A DNA stretch of 64,000 nt. Origin: Escherichia coli (GTDB lineage Bacteria > Pseudomonadota > Gammaproteobacteria > Enterobacterales > Enterobacteriaceae). Positions 1 through 52,598 of this stretch are shown here, piece by piece. Within the stretch, counting starts at the first letter, position 1. Every line of letters starts with the position of its first letter. The notes beneath the pieces were generated by a model. That model saw only the letters and a list, made by a program, of their open reading frames with translations. It searched no databases and was not told the DNA's origin. Location of the stretch: NCBI RefSeq assembly GCF_003790525.1, contig NZ_CP033635.1; one strand, written 5' to 3'. A program made the position numbers and the translations under genes.

Positions 1-244
1 GGCCGACATCTTCTAACGCAAGGGCTAACGTACAGACTTTCGAGATGGATTCCAGCGCAAAGCGGTAATCACAGTCACCCGCACTATAGACGTTGCCATC
101 GCTGGTCACGATAGCCACTGCCGCCAGTTGACCAGGTACATTCGCCAGAAAGGGAATGTAATCGGCATTTTGTCCGCCGTTAAGTGAGTGAAATTGGGTG
201 TAAGCCTGATCCACTGCCTGCTGTAATTTGTTTGCATCTAACAT
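1..244 (-). CDS. glsA: Glutaminase 1 (GlsA/YbaS), N-terminal 81 codons only; gene continues past the window start
   Basis: Reverse-strand ATG at 242-244 with upstream GGAG; translation MLDANK...FALESISKVCTLALALEDVG matches the E. coli YbaS N-terminus; divergent from copA. Confidence 0.8.
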   Translation of the reverse strand, partial: MLDANKLQQAVDQAYTQFHSLNGGQNADYIPFLANVPGQLAAVAIVTSDGNVYSAGDCDYRFALESISKVCTLALALEDVG

Positions 245-435
245 CTTTTGTTAACTCCTTTTTATAGATGCGGGAGGTAATTCCTCACCCCGGTGCCGAT
301 TTTCAGGCATCCTGATTTAACTTAGCACCCGCAACTTAACTACAGGAAAACAAAGAGATAAATGTCTAATCCTGATGCAAATCGAGCCGATTTTTTAATC
401 TTTACGGACTTTTACCCGCCTGGTTTATTAATTTC

Positions 436-466
436 TTGACCTTCCCCTTGCTGGAAGGTTTAACCT
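436..466 (+). promoter_or_regulatory. copA promoter with CueR (MerR-family) operator: -35 TTGACC, 19-bp spacer carrying the dyad CCTTCC-N7-GGAAGG, -10 TAACCT
   Basis: Dyad 440-458 lies exactly in a 19-bp spacer between -35 (436-441) and -10 (461-466), about 40 nt upstream of the copA ATG; typical MerR-type architecture. Confidence 0.75.
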
Positions 467-506
467 TTATCACAGCCAGTCAAAACTGTCTTAAAAGGAG
501 TGTTTT

Positions 507-3011
507 ATGTCACAAACTATCGACCTGACCCTGGACGGCCTGTCCTGCGGTCACTGCGTTAAACGCGTGAAAGAAAGTCTCGAACAGCGCCCGGATGTTG
601 AGCAGGCGGATGTGTCTGTCACTGAAGCGCACGTTACCGGGACTGCCAGTGCAGAACAGCTGATCGAAACCATCAAACAAGCGGGTTATGACGCATCTGT
701 AAGCCACCCAAAGGCTAAACCGCTGGCGGAGTCATCAATCCCGTCGGAAGCACTGACAGCGGTTTCTGAGGCGCTTCCGGCAGCGACCGCCGATGACGAT
801 GACAGCCAGCAGTTGCTGCTGAGCGGCATGAGCTGCGCCAGCTGTGTCACCCGCGTACAAAATGCGCTGCAAAGCGTACCGGGCGTCACTCAGGCACGGG
901 TAAACCTGGCGGAGCGTACTGCGCTGGTGATGGGCAGTGCCTCCCCACAAGATTTAGTGCAGGCGGTGGAAAAAGCGGGCTACGGTGCGGAAGCGATTGA
1001 AGATGACGCGAAACGCCGTGAGCGCCAGCAAGAAACCGCCGTCGCTACGATGAAGCGCTTCCGCTGGCAGGCGATTGTCGCACTGGCGGTGGGTATCCCG
1101 GTGATGGTCTGGGGGATGATCGGCGATAACATGATGGTCACCGCCGACAACCGCAGCCTGTGGTTGGTTATCGGCCTGATAACCCTGGCGGTAATGTTTT
1201 TCGCCGGCGGGCATTTTTACCGCAGCGCATGGAAAAGCCTGCTGAACGGTGCAGCGACGATGGATACGCTGGTGGCGCTGGGTACTGGCGTGGCGTGGCT
1301 CTATTCGATGAGCGTCAACCTGTGGCCGCAGTGGTTCCCGATGGAAGCGCGACATCTTTACTATGAAGCCAGTGCGATGATTATCGGTCTGATCAATCTC
1401 GGCCATATGCTGGAAGCGCGCGCACGTCAGCGTTCTTCTAAGGCGCTGGAGAAATTACTCGATTTAACCCCACCGACGGCGCGCCTGGTCACCGACGAAG
1501 GTGAAAAAAACGTGCCGCTGGCAGATGTTCAGCCAGGTATGTTACTGCGCCTGACGACCGGCGACCGTGTGCCGGTAGATGGTGAGATTACTCAAGGCGA
1601 AGCGTGGCTGGATGAAGCGATGCTGACGGGCGAACCTATCCCGCAGCAAAAAGGCGAAGGCGATAGCGTCCATGCCGGGACAGTGGTACAGGACGGCAGT
1701 GTGCTGTTTCGTGCCAGTGCGGTCGGCAGCCATACTACGCTGTCACGGATCATTCGCATGGTGCGCCAGGCCCAGAGCAGCAAGCCTGAAATCGGCCAAC
1801 TGGCGGATAAAATCTCAGCCGTATTTGTGCCGGTAGTAGTGGTTATTGCGCTTGTCAGTGCGGCAATCTGGTATTTCTTTGGTCCGGCACCGCAGATTGT
1901 CTATACCCTGGTGATTGCCACCACGGTGCTGATTATTGCCTGTCCGTGTGCGCTGGGACTGGCGACGCCGATGTCGATTATTTCGGGCGTCGGGCGGGCG
2001 GCTGAGTTTGGCGTGCTGGTACGGGACGCCGACGCGCTGCAACGCGCCAGTACGCTCGATACCGTAGTGTTCGATAAAACCGGGACGCTGACCGAAGGTA
2101 AACCGCAGGTTGTCGCAGTGAAAACGTTTGCTGATGTTGATGAAGCGCAGGCATTGCGTCTGGCGGCGGCACTGGAGCAAGGTTCCAGCCATCCGCTGGC
2201 ACGAGCGATCCTCGATAAAGCAGGCGATATGCAGCTGCCGCAGGTCAACGGTTTCCGCACATTGCGCGGGCTGGGCGTGAGCGGTGAAGCTGAAGGTCAT
2301 GCGTTATTGCTGGGCAATCAGGCGCTGTTAAATGAGCAACAGGTTGATACCAAAGCTATCGAAGCGGAGATTACTGCTCAGGCATCGCAAGGGGCAACGC
2401 CTGTGCTGCTGGCGGTTGACGGGAAAGCGGTAGCCCTGCTGGCTGTACGCGATCCATTGCGTAGTGATAGCGTGGCGGCGCTGCAACGCCTGCATAAAGC
2501 GGGATATCGTCTGGTGATGTTGACCGGGGATAACCCAACCACCGCCAATGCGATCGCCAAAGAAGCCGGGATTGATGAGGTGATCGCCGGGGTGCTGCCG
2601 GACGGTAAAGCCGAAGCGATTAAACGCCTGCAAAGTGAAGGACGTCAGGTGGCAATGGTGGGCGACGGCATTAACGACGCGCCAGCGCTGGCTCAGGCGG
2701 ATGTCGGTATTGCGATGGGTGGCGGCAGTGATGTTGCCATTGAAACCGCGGCGATTACCCTGATGCGCCATAGCCTGATGGGTGTTGCGGATGCGCTCGC
2801 GATTTCCCGCGCAACGCTGCGCAATATGAAGCAGAACCTGCTCGGTGCGTTTATCTACAACAGCATTGGTATTCCGGTCGCCGCCGGTATTTTGTGGCCG
2901 TTCACCGGTACGCTGCTTAACCCGGTGGTTGCCGGAGCGGCAATGGCGCTCTCGTCGATTACCGTAGTGAGTAACGCCAACCGGTTGCTGCGGTTTAAAC
3001 CGAAGGAATAA
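507..3011 (+). CDS. copA: Cu(I)-translocating P1B-type ATPase CopA (834 aa)
   Basis: ORF track 834 aa; two N-terminal heavy-metal-binding motifs ([16 protein letters not shown]), membrane CPC motif, DKTGT phosphorylation site, GDGINDAP hinge; AAAGGAG SD upstream. Confidence 0.97.
707..718 (+). other. copA: Programmed -1 ribosomal frameshift site inside copA (slippery heptamer C CCA AAG, then GGC TAA in the -1 frame), giving the 70-aa CopA(Z) metallochaperone
   Basis: Heptamer at 707-713 is in the X XXY YYZ register for the copA frame (codons 68-69 Pro-Lys); the -1 frame stops two codons later at 716-718, directly after the first HMA domain. Confidence 0.6.
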
Positions 3012-3314: not shown

Positions 3315-4109
3315 ATGGATCTGTTGTACCGGGTAAAAACGCTTTGGGCCGCGCTGCGCGGTAATCATTACACCTGGCCTGCTATCGATATCTCTCTTCC
3401 CGGCAATCGCCATTTTCATCTGATCGGCAGTATTCATATGGGTAGCCACGATATGGCTCCCCTGCCCACCCGTTTGCTCAAAAAGCTCAAAAACGCCGAT
3501 GCGCTGATCGTCGAGGCGGATGTTTCCACCAGCGATACGCCTTTTGCTAATTTGCCTGCCTGCGAGGCGCTGGAAGAGCGCATTAGCGAGGAGCAACTCC
3601 AAAACCTGCAGCACATTAGCCAGGAGATGGGCATTTCTACCTCACTCTTTTCTACCCAACCGCTGTGGCAAATCGCGATGGTTCTTCAGGCGACGCAGGC
3701 ACAAAAACTGGGGCTCCGGGCAGAATATGGTATCGATTACCAGCTATTGCAGGCGGCGAAGCAACAACATAAACCCGTGATTGAACTGGAAGGGGCAGAA
3801 AACCAGATTGCCATGTTGCTCCAGCTCCCTGACAAAGGACTGGCACTGCTGGACGATACGCTGACCCACTGGCACACCAATGCACGGTTGCTGCAACAAA
3901 TGATGAGCTGGTGGCTGAATGCACCGCCGCAAAATAATGAAATAACGCTGCCCAATACGTTCAGTCAGTCGCTGTACGATGTGCTGATGCATCAGCGAAA
4001 TCTCGCCTGGCGGGATAAATTACGCGCCATGCCGCCGGGGCGATATGTGGTCGCGGTCGGTGCACTACACCTGTATGGAGAAGGGAATTTGCCGCAAATG
4101 TTGCGCTAA
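3315..4109 (+). CDS. ybaP: TraB/GumN-family protein YbaP (264 aa)
   Basis: ORF track 264 aa with GGAGG SD upstream; sequence recognised as E. coli YbaP. Confidence 0.85.
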   Translation: MDLLYRVKTLWAALRGNHYTWPAIDISLPGNRHFHLIGSIHMGSHDMAPLPTRLLKKLKNADALIVEADVSTSDTPFANLPACEALEERISEEQLQNLQHISQEMGISTSLFSTQPLWQIAMVLQATQAQKLGLRAEYGIDYQLLQAAKQQHKPVIELEGAENQIAMLLQLPDKGLALLDDTLTHWHTNARLLQQMMSWWLNAPPQNNEITLPNTFSQSLYDVLMHQRNLAWRDKLRAMPPGRYVVAVGALHLYGEGNLPQMLR

Positions 4110-4191
4110 AAAAATGGCCAATATCGCTATTGGCCCGTCAAAGAGGAATTTCATTTTTTTATTATTATGCCGTCACTTTAAGCGACGGTGT
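4108..4191 (-). ncRNA. chiX: ChiX (MicM/SroB/RybC) small regulatory RNA, 84 nt
   Basis: Reverse complement reads ACACCGTCGCTTAAAGTGACGGCATAATAATAAAAAAATGAAATTCCTCTTTGACGGGCCAATAGCGATATTGGCCATTTTTTT, i.e. the ChiX sequence with its GC hairpin and 7-U tail; convergent with ybaP. Confidence 0.85.
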
Positions 4192-6698: not shown

Positions 6699-7919
6699 AT
6701 GGCAATGAGTGAACAAACCCAGCCTGTGGCGGGCGCGGCTGCGTCAACGACCAAGGCCCGAACATCGTTTGGTATTTTAGGTGCTATCAGCCTCTCACAT
6801 CTGCTGAACGACATGATCCAATCGCTGATTCTGGCGATTTATCCGCTGCTTCAGTCAGAGTTTTCTCTGACATTTATGCAGATTGGCATGATAACCCTCA
6901 CCTTCCAGCTCGCCTCTTCGCTACTGCAACCGGTGGTCGGTTACTGGACCGATAAATATCCGATGCCGTGGTCGTTGCCAATTGGCATGTGCTTTACCTT
7001 AAGTGGTCTGGTGCTGCTTGCGCTGGCGGGCAGTTTTGGCGCAGTTCTGCTGGCGGCGGCGCTGGTCGGTACCGGTTCATCGGTCTTTCATCCGGAATCT
7101 TCTCGCGTGGCCCGTATGGCTTCCGGCGGGCGGCATGGCCTGGCGCAATCTATCTTTCAGGTCGGCGGCAACTTTGGCAGTTCCCTGGGCCCCTTGCTGG
7201 CGGCGGTGATTATCGCGCCTTATGGTAAAGGCAACGTTGCCTGGTTTGTGCTTGCGGCACTGCTGGCGATCGTGGTGTTGGCGCAAATCAGCCGTTGGTA
7301 CTCGGCACAGCACCGAATGAATAAAGGAAAACCCAAAGCGACGATTATCAATCCACTGCCGCGTAACAAAGTGGTACTGGCGGTCAGCATTCTGTTAATC
7401 CTCATTTTCTCGAAATATTTCTATATGGCGAGCATCAGCAGCTATTACACCTTTTATCTGATGCAAAAATTCGGATTATCTATCCAGAATGCTCAGCTTC
7501 ATCTGTTTGCCTTCCTGTTTGCCGTTGCGGCAGGTACGGTGATCGGCGGGCCTGTAGGGGATAAAATTGGGCGGAAATATGTGATTTGGGGCTCTATCCT
7601 CGGCGTTGCGCCGTTTACGCTGATTTTACCCTACGCCAGCCTGCACTGGACGGGGGTTTTAACGGTGATTATTGGATTTATCCTCGCTTCGGCATTCTCT
7701 GCCATTCTGGTCTACGCTCAGGAGCTGCTTCCGGGACGTATCGGTATGGTTTCTGGACTCTTTTTCGGTTTTGCTTTTGGCATGGGAGGTCTGGGAGCGG
7801 CAGTTCTGGGGCTTATCGCCGATCACACCAGCATCGAGTTAGTCTATAAAATCTGTGCTTTCCTGCCACTATTGGGGATGTTGACCATATTCCTGCCTGA
7901 TAACCGGCATAAAGACTGA
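6699..7919 (+). CDS. fsr: MFS transporter Fsr (fosmidomycin resistance), 406 aa
   Basis: ORF track 406 aa; 12-TM MFS-like hydrophobic profile; position between ushA and ybaL as in E. coli. Confidence 0.9.
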   Translation: MAMSEQTQPVAGAAASTTKARTSFGILGAISLSHLLNDMIQSLILAIYPLLQSEFSLTFMQIGMITLTFQLASSLLQPVVGYWTDKYPMPWSLPIGMCFTLSGLVLLALAGSFGAVLLAAALVGTGSSVFHPESSRVARMASGGRHGLAQSIFQVGGNFGSSLGPLLAAVIIAPYGKGNVAWFVLAALLAIVVLAQISRWYSAQHRMNKGKPKATIINPLPRNKVVLAVSILLILIFSKYFYMASISSYYTFYLMQKFGLSIQNAQLHLFAFLFAVAAGTVIGGPVGDKIGRKYVIWGSILGVAPFTLILPYASLHWTGVLTVIIGFILASAFSAILVYAQELLPGRIGMVSGLFFGFAFGMGGLGAAVLGLIADHTSIELVYKICAFLPLLGMLTIFLPDNRHKD

Positions 7920-9840: not shown

Positions 9841-9950
9841 TTGCCGGATAATAGGCGCGGATATGTAGGCCTGATAAGACGCGCCAGCGTCGCATCAGGC
9901 ATTGAGAGCAAAATGCCAGATGCGGCGTGAACGCCTTATCTGGCCTACGA
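9841..9950. repeat. REP/BIME cluster between convergent ybaL and gsk
   Basis: GTAGGCCTGATAAGACGCGCCAGCGTCGCATCAGGC and GCCAGATGCGGCGTGAACGCCTTATCTGGCCTAC REP units. Confidence 0.8.
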
Positions 9951-16277: not shown

Positions 16278-16882
16278 TTAAAAACGAATCTTATGACGCC
16301 CGGCAAGGGAGTGTGACAGCGTGGTGCCATCGACCATTTCCAGTTCGCCGCCAACCGGTACGCCATGAGCGATTCGGCTGGCTTCCACGTCATATTGCGC
16401 ACAAAGCTCGGCAATGTAGTTAGCGGTAGCTTCACCTTCAACCGTGGGATTGGTGGCGAGGATCACTTCAGTGATTTTTTCCTCTGCCAGACGCTGTTCC
16501 AGACGATCAAGGCCGATATCATCCGGACCGATGCCGTCCAGCGGTGACAGATGCCCCATCAACACAAAATAACGACCTGAAAACTGCCCCGTCTGCTCAA
16601 TGGCGTAAATGTCCGCCGGACTCTCCACCACGCAGATTTGACCGTTTTCCTGACGACGCGGATTCGAACAGATGTTACAGACTTCCTGTTCGGTGAAGGT
16701 GCGGCAATCGGCGCAGTGGCCGATTTCCGACATCGCCCGGGTGAGCGCCTGCGCCAGACGCATCCCGCCGCTACGATCGCGCTGAAGCAGCGTGAACGCC
16801 ATACGCTGCGCCGACTTCGGGCCAACGCCCGGCAGACAGCGCAGTGCTTCCATAAGCTGTGTTAACAGCGGGCTGGTTTGCA

Positions 16883-17264: not shown

Positions 17265-19196
17265 TCAAATGGGGCGGATACTTTCTTCATCCAGCTCCGC
17301 ATCGAAGAATCGACGCAGGGTCTGAATATTATTATCCGCAATAATGGACTCGCGCGCCTGCGCAAGTTTTTCTTCGTATATCGCCTGACGCCATTCCAGC
17401 GGCGTACGCACCGCGGGATTATCATCTTCAACGATAGTCAGTTCAACCGTTGAACCTTTTAACGTGCTCAACGCTTCAGCCAGTTTTTGCTGTGCGCCGC
17501 GGTTGTTCAAATGCCGCTGAGAGGAGCGCAAATGCAGACATACTGCGTTGTCGCTCTCCTCTTTCCAGGCATTTAACGCCACCTGTTCGACCAGTTTTGG
17601 TAGCGAAAGTTGACTCACCTGAGCCGCCCACGGGTCGCGCTCAATGGCTTCTGCCGCCAGCTTCGCCGCCAGTTCCGGCGTTTTTTCATGTTCCAGCGCT
17701 TTTTTCAGCGCCTTCGGCGTGGCGACCACTTCTTTTTGCTGCATCACTGGAGTGGTCGCCTTCCAGCGATACGCTTCTTTTTTGGCTGGCGCTTTTTCCA
17801 GCGCCGATGGCACCGGGCGCGCCTGAACGCGATCGGTGACCGAAGCCAGTCTTTCCAGCGCAGCGTTATTCACCGGCCGCGCGCGGGTAGCGGCTGCCGG
17901 TTCACTCTTTTTTGCTTTGGTTGCTCCCTGCACGCGCTGCAACTGCTGGCGCGCCGCCAGCACCTGGCTGGTGGTTTCCGGGAGCGGTACAGTCGGTGCC
18001 TGCTGCGGCGCTGATTGCGGTTGCGGCGGCACCTGGGTTGGCGTCATTACTGCCGTTGGCGCAACGGGCGCAAAGGACTGGCGTGGCACTTCTGGCTCAG
18101 GCAGAGGCATACGCGGATGGAACGCCAGCGCGCGCAGCAGCGTCATCTCAACGCCCATGCGGCGGTCCGGCGCATACGGTAATTCTTTGCGACCAATCAA
18201 CAGCGTTTGATAGTAAAGCTGAATATCCGTCGGCGGTATGGTACGCGCCAGTTCACGCATCCGCAGCTCGATGGCGGCCATGTCGTTGCCAAGTGCAGCA
18301 GGCGAAAGTTGTACCATCGCAATACGATGCAACAAACCGAGCATTTCCACCAGCAACGCTTCCCACTCGATACCACGGGCAGCAGCTTCATTAATTAGCG
18401 CCATTACGCGCTCGCCGTTGGCCTCGACCATCGCTTCAACCAGCGACAACGCCTGATCGTCGTCAAGCGTACCCAGCATCGCACTGACGGCCTGGGTTGA
18501 AACCTGGCCGTCACCGCTGGCAATCGCCTGGTCGGTCAGACTTAAGGCATCTCGCAAGCTGCCTTCAGCGGCGCGCGCCAGTAATTGCAACGCCCGCGGC
18601 TCGTGAGCGATATGTTCTTCGTTGAGGATGTGCTCAAGCTGATGGCGAATTTGCTCGACATCCAGCGCCTTGAGATGGAATTGCAGACAGCGCGACAAAA
18701 TCGTCACCGGCAATTTCTGCGGATCGGTCGTCGCCAGCAGAAACTTAACGTGCTCCGGCGGCTCTTCAAGGGTTTTTAACAGTGCGTTAAAGCTGTGGCG
18801 CGACAGCATATGCACTTCGTCGATGAGATAAACTTTGAAACGACCACGCGCCGGAGCGTACTGGACGTTATCCAGCAGGTCGCGAGTGTCTTCAACTTTA
18901 GTACGCGAGGCGGCGTCGATTTCAATCAGATCGACAAAGCGCCCCTGCTCGATTTCACGACAGTTATCGCACACGCCGCACGGCGTCGCGGTAATGCCGG
19001 TTTCGCAGTTTAGCCCCTTCGCCAGCAGTCGGGCGATAGAGGTTTTTCCGACGCCACGGGTACCGGAAAAAAGATAAGCATGATGAATACGCCCTAACGA
19101 CAAGCCGTTCGCCAGTGCGGTCAGCACATGTTCCTGGCCGACGACGTCAGCAAAGGTTTGTGGGCGCCATTTTCGGGCTAAGACCTGATAACTCAT
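17265..19196 (-). CDS. dnaX: DNA polymerase III subunits tau (full length, 643 aa) and gamma (via frameshift)
   Basis: ORF track 643 aa; AAA+ Walker A GTRGVGKT; contains the known frameshift heptamer. Confidence 0.97.
   Translation of the reverse strand: MSYQVLARKWRPQTFADVVGQEHVLTALANGLSLGRIHHAYLFSGTRGVGKTSIARLLAKGLNCETGITATPCGVCDNCREIEQGRFVDLIEIDAASRTKVEDTRDLLDNVQYAPARGRFKVYLIDEVHMLSRHSFNALLKTLEEPPEHVKFLLATTDPQKLPVTILSRCLQFHLKALDVEQIRHQLEHILNEEHIAHEPRALQLLARAAEGSLRDALSLTDQAIASGDGQVSTQAVSAMLGTLDDDQALSLVEAMVEANGERVMALINEAAARGIEWEALLVEMLGLLHRIAMVQLSPAALGNDMAAIELRMRELARTIPPTDIQLYYQTLLIGRKELPYAPDRRMGVEMTLLRALAFHPRMPLPEPEVPRQSFAPVAPTAVMTPTQVPPQPQSAPQQAPTVPLPETTSQVLAARQQLQRVQGATKAKKSEPAAATRARPVNNAALERLASVTDRVQARPVPSALEKAPAKKEAYRWKATTPVMQQKEVVATPKALKKALEHEKTPELAAKLAAEAIERDPWAAQVSQLSLPKLVEQVALNAWKEESDNAVCLHLRSSQRHLNNRGAQQKLAEALSTLKGSTVELTIVEDDNPAVRTPLEWRQAIYEEKLAQARESIIADNNIQTLRRFFDAELDEESIRPI
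17907..17913 (-). other. dnaX: dnaX programmed -1 ribosomal frameshift heptamer (A AAA AAG) producing the gamma subunit
   Basis: Reverse complement of 17907-17913 is AAAAAAG, in register with dnaX codons 428-430 (AKKSEPAA context); GC-rich hairpin-capable sequence follows. Confidence 0.85.
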
Positions 19197-34725: not shown

Positions 34726-34839
34726 GGGTGGGGGCCCTGCCAGCTACATCCCGGCACACGCGTCATCTGCCTTGGCTGCTTCCTTCCGGACCTGACCTGG
34801 TAAACAGAGTAGCGTTGCGGGAGAACCAACAGAGCCCCC
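34726..34839 (-). ncRNA. ffs: 4.5S RNA (signal recognition particle RNA), 114 nt
   Basis: Reverse complement reads GGGGGCTCTGTTGGTTCTCCCGCAACGCTACTCTGTTTACCAGGTCAGGTCCGGAAGGAAGCAGCCAAGGCAGATGACGCGTGTGCCGGGATGTAGCTGGCAGGGCCCCCACCC, the E. coli 4.5S RNA. Confidence 0.95.
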
Positions 34840-52411: not shown

Positions 52412-52493
52412 AGAGCTCTCTCTTAGTTTAATTTCCGCCAGGTAATCAGATGACACGACTGTGCTTCACGCCATCTATTAACATGTACGTCAG

Positions 52494-52524
52494 TATATGG
52501 GGATGTTTCCCCCACATTCAACGC
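52494..52524 (-). promoter_or_regulatory. sigma32 heat-shock promoter of lon
   Basis: Transcribed strand reads GTTGAAT-N13-CCCCATAT about 75 nt upstream of the lon ATG. Confidence 0.65.
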
Positions 52525-52536
52525 CGAGAATAGAGG

Positions 52537-52570
52537 AAAAATTAAAGGGGAGATAAAATCCCCCCTTTTT
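52537..52570 (-). terminator. Putative terminator after clpX
   Basis: Short GC stem GGGGA/TCCCC with 7-nt loop followed on the transcribed strand by TTTAATTTTT, 30 nt after the clpX stop. Confidence 0.5.
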
Positions 52571-52598
52571 GGTTAACTAATTGTATGGGAATGGTTAA

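Follow-up and report, generated by a model that had tools for sequence, protein, structure and literature searches.

A CueR operator built into the 19-bp spacer of the copA promoter in a 64-kb stretch of the Escherichia coli chromosome

The glsA–copA region and its core promoter

Our study examined a promoter near the left end of a 64,000-nucleotide stretch of Escherichia coli DNA (contig NZ_CP033635.1; this whole stretch is referred to as the window). The promoter lies between glsA, a minus-strand gene that starts at 244 and continues past the left edge of the window, and copA, which occupies 507–3011 on the plus strand and encodes an 834 aa Cu(I)-exporting P1B-type ATPase. The copA assignment was drawn from the open reading frame list, the RefSeq annotation and NCBIfam, in which the reading frame matched the equivalog family NF007952 (CopA) with 1748 bits (cut-off 1316). 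A 501-base segment surrounding the site was matched in 5422 of 5426 complete E. coli genomes, where the annotated features were again glsA and copA, and a 57-bp core (424–480) was identical in 5352 of those 5422. Over the first 25 kb of the window (1–25000), a small group of genomes that includes strain SMS-3-5 was matched at 100.0 % identity, and identity of ≥99 % was reached in only 33 genomes. Five structured RNA elements elsewhere in the window matched Rfam at gathering score, namely sroB/ChiX (4108–4191, minus strand), naRNA4 (9868–9945, minus), the DnaX ribosomal frameshift element (17868–17932, minus), 4.5S (SRP) RNA (34735–34831, minus) and sraA (52483–52578, plus), and none of the five is unexpected in this part of the E. 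coli chromosome.

The gene for the presumed regulator, cueR, was not found in the 64-kb window by tblastn with CueR. In K-12, copA on the minus strand is followed by three plus-strand genes, glsA, ybaT and cueR, in that order. In E. coli SMS-3-5, cueR begins approximately 2.1 kb past the position of the window's first base, immediately after ybaT and a small pseudogene remnant. The placement of cueR beyond glsA and ybaT, outside the window, which had been proposed in the first-pass annotation of this DNA, agrees with the order seen in both genomes and with the negative tblastn search, with the qualification that in some strains an island of approximately 26 kb separates ybaT from cueR. In one such strain, 7/2 (NZ_CP023820.1), this block occupies 3532–29110 of the stretch examined and carries a frameshifted TolC-family gene, a 20.8-kb gene for a BapA-related adhesin (siiEA), a type I secretion ATPase and an HlyD adaptor.

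The transcription start of copA was taken from the genome-wide data of Kim et al. 2012 (PMC3415461, supplementary file 2), which place it at NC_000913.2 510635 on the minus strand with 95 reads and a 32-nt 5′UTR. The upstream string listed for this start, TTTATTAATTTCTTGACCTTCCCCTTGCTGGAAGGTTTAACCTTTATCACA, ending in ...TTGACCTTCCCCTTGCTGGAAGGTTTAACCTTTATCACA, was matched by the window over 51 nt, and mapping through the K-12 alignment placed the start at the A at 474 on the plus strand. This position rests on one genome-wide data set, and a primer-extension position could differ by approximately 1 nt. Alignment with K-12 further delimited a 5′UTR of 33 nt (474–506, plus strand), with the Shine–Dalgarno sequence AAGGAG at 495–500. 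The UTR is one nucleotide longer than the 32 nt of K-12, as the window has AAAA at 493–496, just 5′ of the Shine–Dalgarno sequence, where K-12 has AAA; this extra A is the sole difference from K-12 across the whole glsA–copA intergenic region. On the glsA side, the same table lists a weak start (2 reads) at window position 314 on the minus strand. A terminator-like stem, TCAGGCATCCTGA, with a T-rich tail was seen on the plus strand at 303–315, overlapping that start.

Within copA, a −1 frameshift heptamer, C CCA AAG, was observed at 707–713 on the plus strand, after which the −1 frame reads GGC TAA (707–718 in all). The product of this frameshift is the 70 aa copper chaperone CopA(Z), annotated in K-12 as a joined two-piece coding sequence (511168..511379). 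Owing to this programmed frameshift, the CueR promoter drives two products.

The core promoter was read directly as a 31-mer, TTGACCTTCCCCTTGCTGGAAGGTTTAACCT, at 436–466, all of its elements being on the plus strand. The −35 hexamer is TTGACC (436–441), which matches TTGACA at five of six positions and is the same in K-12 and in PcueO. The −10 hexamer is TAACCT (461–466), which retains the conserved T1, A2 and T6 but is poor, with three matches of six. Between the two lies the spacer TTCCCCTTGCTGGAAGGTT (442–460), which by direct count is 19 bp long and so exceeds the 17-bp optimum by 2 bp. The hexamer coordinates and the 19-bp count given in the first-pass annotation were thus correct on direct reading. 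The mapped start also agrees with the proposed −10: TAACCT occupies −13 to −8 relative to 474, so that seven bases intervene before the start, itself the eighth nucleotide after the hexamer, as is normal for sigma-70. A start that did not fit this hexamer had been named as grounds for abandoning the reading.

The spacer carries a dyad, which the repeat finder reported as a perfect ACCTTCC-N7-GGAAGGT at 439–459 (centred on 449 and assigned to neither strand), with the 7-nt arms ACCTTCC at 439–445 and GGAAGGT at 453–459, 7 nt apart. Its core, CCTTCC (440–445)-N7-GGAAGG (453–458), spans 440–458. The dyad had been described earlier as filling the spacer; its presence was confirmed, but it does not lie wholly inside the spacer, as the core arms overlap the −35 hexamer by 2 bp and the 7-nt arms overlap it by 3 bp (439–441). 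On the other side, the core ends 2 bp short of the −10 hexamer (458 to 461), and the 7-nt arms end 1 bp short of it. A smaller palindrome, AAGGTT-T-AACCTT, was also observed at 455–467, where it overlaps both the −10 hexamer and the right arm of the operator. Enterobacter, Superficieibacter and Citrobacter sp. Cu233 keep this palindrome, but E. albertii and C. werkmanii (TTTACCCTT) have it disrupted, and it probably arises incidentally from the elements next to it.

Correspondence with K-12 PcopA, and upstream elements

Pairwise alignment found the 31-mer to be identical to K-12 MG1655 (NC_000913.3 511449..511419, minus strand). Alignment with the published copA promoter had been suggested as a check on the first reading, and all 31 of 31 bases were the same, dyad included. 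Furthermore, window positions 436–462 are the published 27-bp CueR-binding copA oligonucleotide, 5′-TTGACCTTCCCCTTGCTGGAAGGTTTA-3′, the promoter DNA that served for gel-shift and EPR work with CueR (PMC9004249). Three features of PcopA were given in the cryo-EM work on the CueR transcription activation complex (PMC8169799): the spacer measures 19 bp, the inverted repeat shares 3 bp with the −35, and 2 bp separate the core CCTTCC-N7-GGAAGG from the −10. The layout in the window agrees with all three. Comparative genomics has given the CueR/HmrR site a consensus of ACCTTCCC-(5)-TGGAAGGT and treats a spacer of 19 bp as obligatory (PMC1526738); the window site conforms to both the consensus and the spacer rule.

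The window promoter is therefore like K-12 PcopA in all 31 core base pairs, in the gene downstream and in gene order, and differs in its strain background, the closest complete genomes to the window including SMS-3-5, and in the one extra A of the intergenic region, which falls downstream of the start. Taken together, we regard it as almost certain that window 436–466 is the core PcopA of Escherichia coli, with a CueR operator set into the 19 bp of its spacer. As this DNA does not differ from that of K-12 PcopA, the CueR mechanism described for K-12 was accepted for this promoter with high confidence.

Upstream of this core, a perfect match to the CpxR-box consensus GTAAA-N5-GTAAA (GTAAAAGTCCGTAAA; motif source PMC9600279) lies at 401–415 on the minus strand, 21–35 bp upstream of the −35. 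It is the single match in the 64 kb, where 0.11 were expected, and on its motif this putative box is a probable second input to the promoter. A broader proposal is that CueR is one of two comparable inputs, with CpxR at 401–415 contributing materially to copA transcription through the same core promoter, and here we judge the chances to be about even. In addition to the motif, this proposal draws on a report that CpxR regulates copA, the copA transcript being lower in cpxA and cpxR mutants (PMC11005409), and on a screen of CpxRA in which copA was up approximately 2-fold (PMC9600279). Against it, conservation of the box does not extend to E. albertii or the other enterobacteria, and a prophage-bearing strain, described below, keeps the core promoter but has the box displaced from it by approximately 34.5 kb. 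Moreover, an input from CpxR complements the CueR explanation and does not exclude it.

The strain in question, 24A16CRGN010, carries a P2-family prophage of approximately 34.5 kb between glsA and copA, inside the promoter itself (NZ_CM148325.1 4024000–4067000, with junctions near 7826 and 42396 of that stretch). A 20-bp core, CTTGACCTTCCCCTTGCTGG, which corresponds to window positions 435–454 and covers the −35 hexamer together with the left arm and the centre of the CueR operator, was duplicated at both junctions. PcopA is thereby rebuilt intact on the copA side, where everything upstream of the −35 is phage DNA, while the glsA side retains an orphan half-operator and the CpxR box is separated from the promoter by the whole prophage. 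The glsA-side junction was found in 6 of 5426 complete E. coli genomes, mostly chicken isolates, and the prophage is absent from the window. No free phage with a matching attP was matched in the phage collection searched, and a literature search on this integration site returned nothing relevant. The duplication makes CTTGACCTTCCCCTTGCTGG a candidate bacterial attachment core for P2-family temperate phages as well as a part of the promoter, a reading that we hold to be no more and no less probable than its contrary. If it is true, lysogeny would keep CueR control of copA and rewire the upstream inputs to the gene.

A further strain, 33-6 (NZ_CP050031.1; 2470–2690 of the stretch examined), showed the same breakpoint within the operator, …CTTGCTGG|GAGGATCTC…, followed by different DNA, with an IS1 and a phage tail-fibre gene on the glsA side. 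Another element, now degraded, may thus have entered at this site.

Related promoters and other readings of the dyad

In place of a CueR weight matrix, a comparison with PcueO and a cross-species sample of the dyad were used. PcueO, the promoter of the multicopper oxidase gene and the second target of CueR, reads TTGACC-TTCCCGTAAGGGGAAGGAC-TATGCT in K-12 with a spacer of 19 bp. It shares with the window promoter the TTGACC, the spacer length and CCTTCC-N7-GGAAGG in an identical register, and differs in the centre of the dyad (CGTAAGG, compared to CCTTGCT here), in an asymmetric seventh arm position (GGAAGGA) and in its −10 hexamer (TATGCT, compared to TAACCT).

The cross-species scan used the bare pattern ACCTTCC-N7-GGAAGGT, demanding neither a −35 nor a −10, on prokaryotic genomes with one genome per species, and returned at least 122 sites in at least 120 stretches of DNA. 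Because the dyad arms were the search pattern they are conserved by construction, and the independent evidence lies in the flanking −35 and −10 bases only. Among the matches listed, TTG stood directly 5′ of the dyad on one side at 49 of 122 sites, where approximately 3.8 were expected. TAnnnT followed at a 19-bp spacing in 24 of these 49 TTG-bearing sites and in none at 15–18 or 20–22 bp, again among the matches listed. A CopA or CueR homologue was located within 1 kb of 37 of the 49 listed sites with TTG, compared to 3 of the 73 listed sites that lacked it. Many of the alphaproteobacterial sites had CAnnnT or GAnnnT at the −10 position instead of TAnnnT.

Alignment of the enterobacterial members (E. 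albertii, Citrobacter, Enterobacter, Superficieibacter and Pantoea) revealed a conserved island, CTTGACCTTCCCC...GGAAGGTTTA..CTT, between flanks that had diverged and could not be aligned. In Enterobacter, Superficieibacter, a Pantoea metagenome-assembled genome and Photobacterium, the start codon of cueR is on the opposite strand, approximately 34 bp away from the dyad. The two genes, copA and cueR, thus make up a divergon of the mer type with a single operator between them, and ybbJ follows. These divergons, and the HmrR/ActP-type promoters of alpha- and betaproteobacteria, resemble the window promoter in having the dyad, TTGACC and the 19-bp register upstream of a CopA homologue. They differ in arrangement, as the divergon genera use one operator for both genes, whereas in Escherichia glsA (with ybaT in E. 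coli) occupies the cueR side. In E. albertii, glsA likewise flanks the operator on the upstream side, and the DNA examined ends within that gene. In agreement with the divergon arrangement, copA (KPN_00464) and cueR (KPN_00465) are consecutive in Klebsiella, for which the table lists no glsA or ybaT ortholog (PMC3415461 supplement), and a copA–cueR divergon without ybaS and ybaT has been described in Salmonella (PMC1526738).

The wider MerR family raises the question of whether the dyad could be the operator of another E. coli paralogue (ZntR, SoxR or MlrA) and not of CueR. PmerT of Tn21/Tn501, controlled by MerR, and PzntA, controlled by ZntR, also hold a dyad in a 19–20-bp spacer and are served by dual repressor/activators that activate through bending and undertwisting of the DNA (PMC1526738, PMC9909328); by description, they differ from PcopA in their half-sites, in the metal sensed and in their target genes. 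As a dyad in a long spacer is common to all metal- and redox-sensing MerR regulators, with spacers of 19–20 bp (PMC1526738), the architecture alone cannot name the regulator. The half-site does so more directly, ACCTTCC/GGAAGGT being the CueR/HmrR signal (PMC1526738), and CueR binding studies, as well as the cited CueR–DNA crystal structures 4WLW and 4WLS, have employed the same DNA. In addition, deletion of PcopA together with PcueO abolished the CueR–DNA FRET signal in vivo (PMC9396075), and the gene downstream is a Cu(I) pump, neither ZntA nor SoxS. We therefore consider control by a paralogue very improbable.

A chance palindrome in an ordinary, weak constitutive promoter, with no regulatory role, would be in keeping with the poor −10 hexamer (3/6 matches), with the commonness of short palindromes in this intergenic region as reported by the repeat finder, and with a generic sigma-70 scan of window 200–560, which called no promoter. 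The last of these is not counter-evidence to the reading as PcopA, as the scanner permits spacers of 16–18 bp only and a promoter with a 19-bp spacer falls outside that range; an over-long spacer is the very feature by which MerR-type promoters are defined. The composite pattern TTGACCTTCC-N7-GGAAGG-NN-TANNNT occurred once in the 64-kb window and, even with one mismatch permitted, in 0 of 100 dinucleotide-preserving shuffles, and its absence from the shuffles excludes chance. The sequence is also identical to an experimentally bound CueR site, its register is shared by PcueO, its linkage to copA and cueR across species is strong among the matches listed, and its core is near-invariant in 5422 genomes. 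The chance reading is effectively refuted, and we give it negligible probability. The exact core dyad has one copy in the window; relaxing it to ≤2 mismatches gave four matches in total, compared to 1.81 expected, and the additional CueR-like sites at 16681, 31169 and 50400 were dropped, their frequency being at chance level.

Finally, the inverted repeat could, with its seven perfect pairs and 7-nt loop, fold in a transcript as a terminator or attenuator hairpin instead of serving as a DNA operator, but this reading was rejected as having next to no probability, as the dyad at 439–459 is upstream of both the copA start at 474 and the leftward glsA start at 314 and so belongs to neither mapped transcript. 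In addition, a run of T is lacking after the dyad, which was also absent from the output of the terminator scan.

CueR control of copA

For the reading as CueR-controlled PcopA, the statements on binding, copper induction and distortion are taken from the K-12 literature on the identical sequence (PMC8169799, PMC9004249, PMC8827015, PMC9396075). By analogy, CueR, a MerR-family homodimer, would sit on the dyad on the face of the DNA opposite RNA polymerase, whether metal-free or metal-bound. Without Cu(I), the two extra base pairs of the spacer would place the −35 and −10 hexamers at too great a distance and approximately 70 degrees out of phase, and it is because of this distance and phase that the sigma-70 holoenzyme would bind poorly, as is described for PcopA in the absence of CueR; apo-CueR would maintain the repressed state. 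On binding Cu(I), Ag(I) or Au(I), CueR would adopt a form in which it kinks the spacer at its centre and undertwists it there. The distance between the hexamers may thereby be shortened to the value for a 17-bp promoter, approximately 55 Å, so that sigma-70 could engage both, and one DNA-binding domain of CueR would help to stabilize the complex by touching the non-conserved region of sigma-70. The position of the box is critical in the published work: moving it 1 bp upstream moderately lowered CueR-dependent activation, and moving it 1 bp toward the −10 almost abolished it (PMC8169799). Transcription would then proceed from window position 474 to give CopA and, through the −1 frameshift at 707–713, CopA(Z), while the CpxR box at 401–415 may add an input from envelope stress.

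The CueR-dependent copA promoter is already known, and there is nothing new in finding it here. The worth of the present analysis lies only in the correct annotation of this promoter, the model example of the MerR-type promoter activated by DNA distortion, and it advances no open question. Its outcome also shows that the first-pass annotation had recognized a genuine regulatory architecture in the bare sequence. As a by-product, it has drawn attention to rare lysogens that carry a P2-family prophage within this promoter with the core promoter preserved. For the organism, PcopA lets E. coli turn on its cytoplasmic Cu(I) export pump, together with CopA(Z), at vanishingly low concentrations of free copper.
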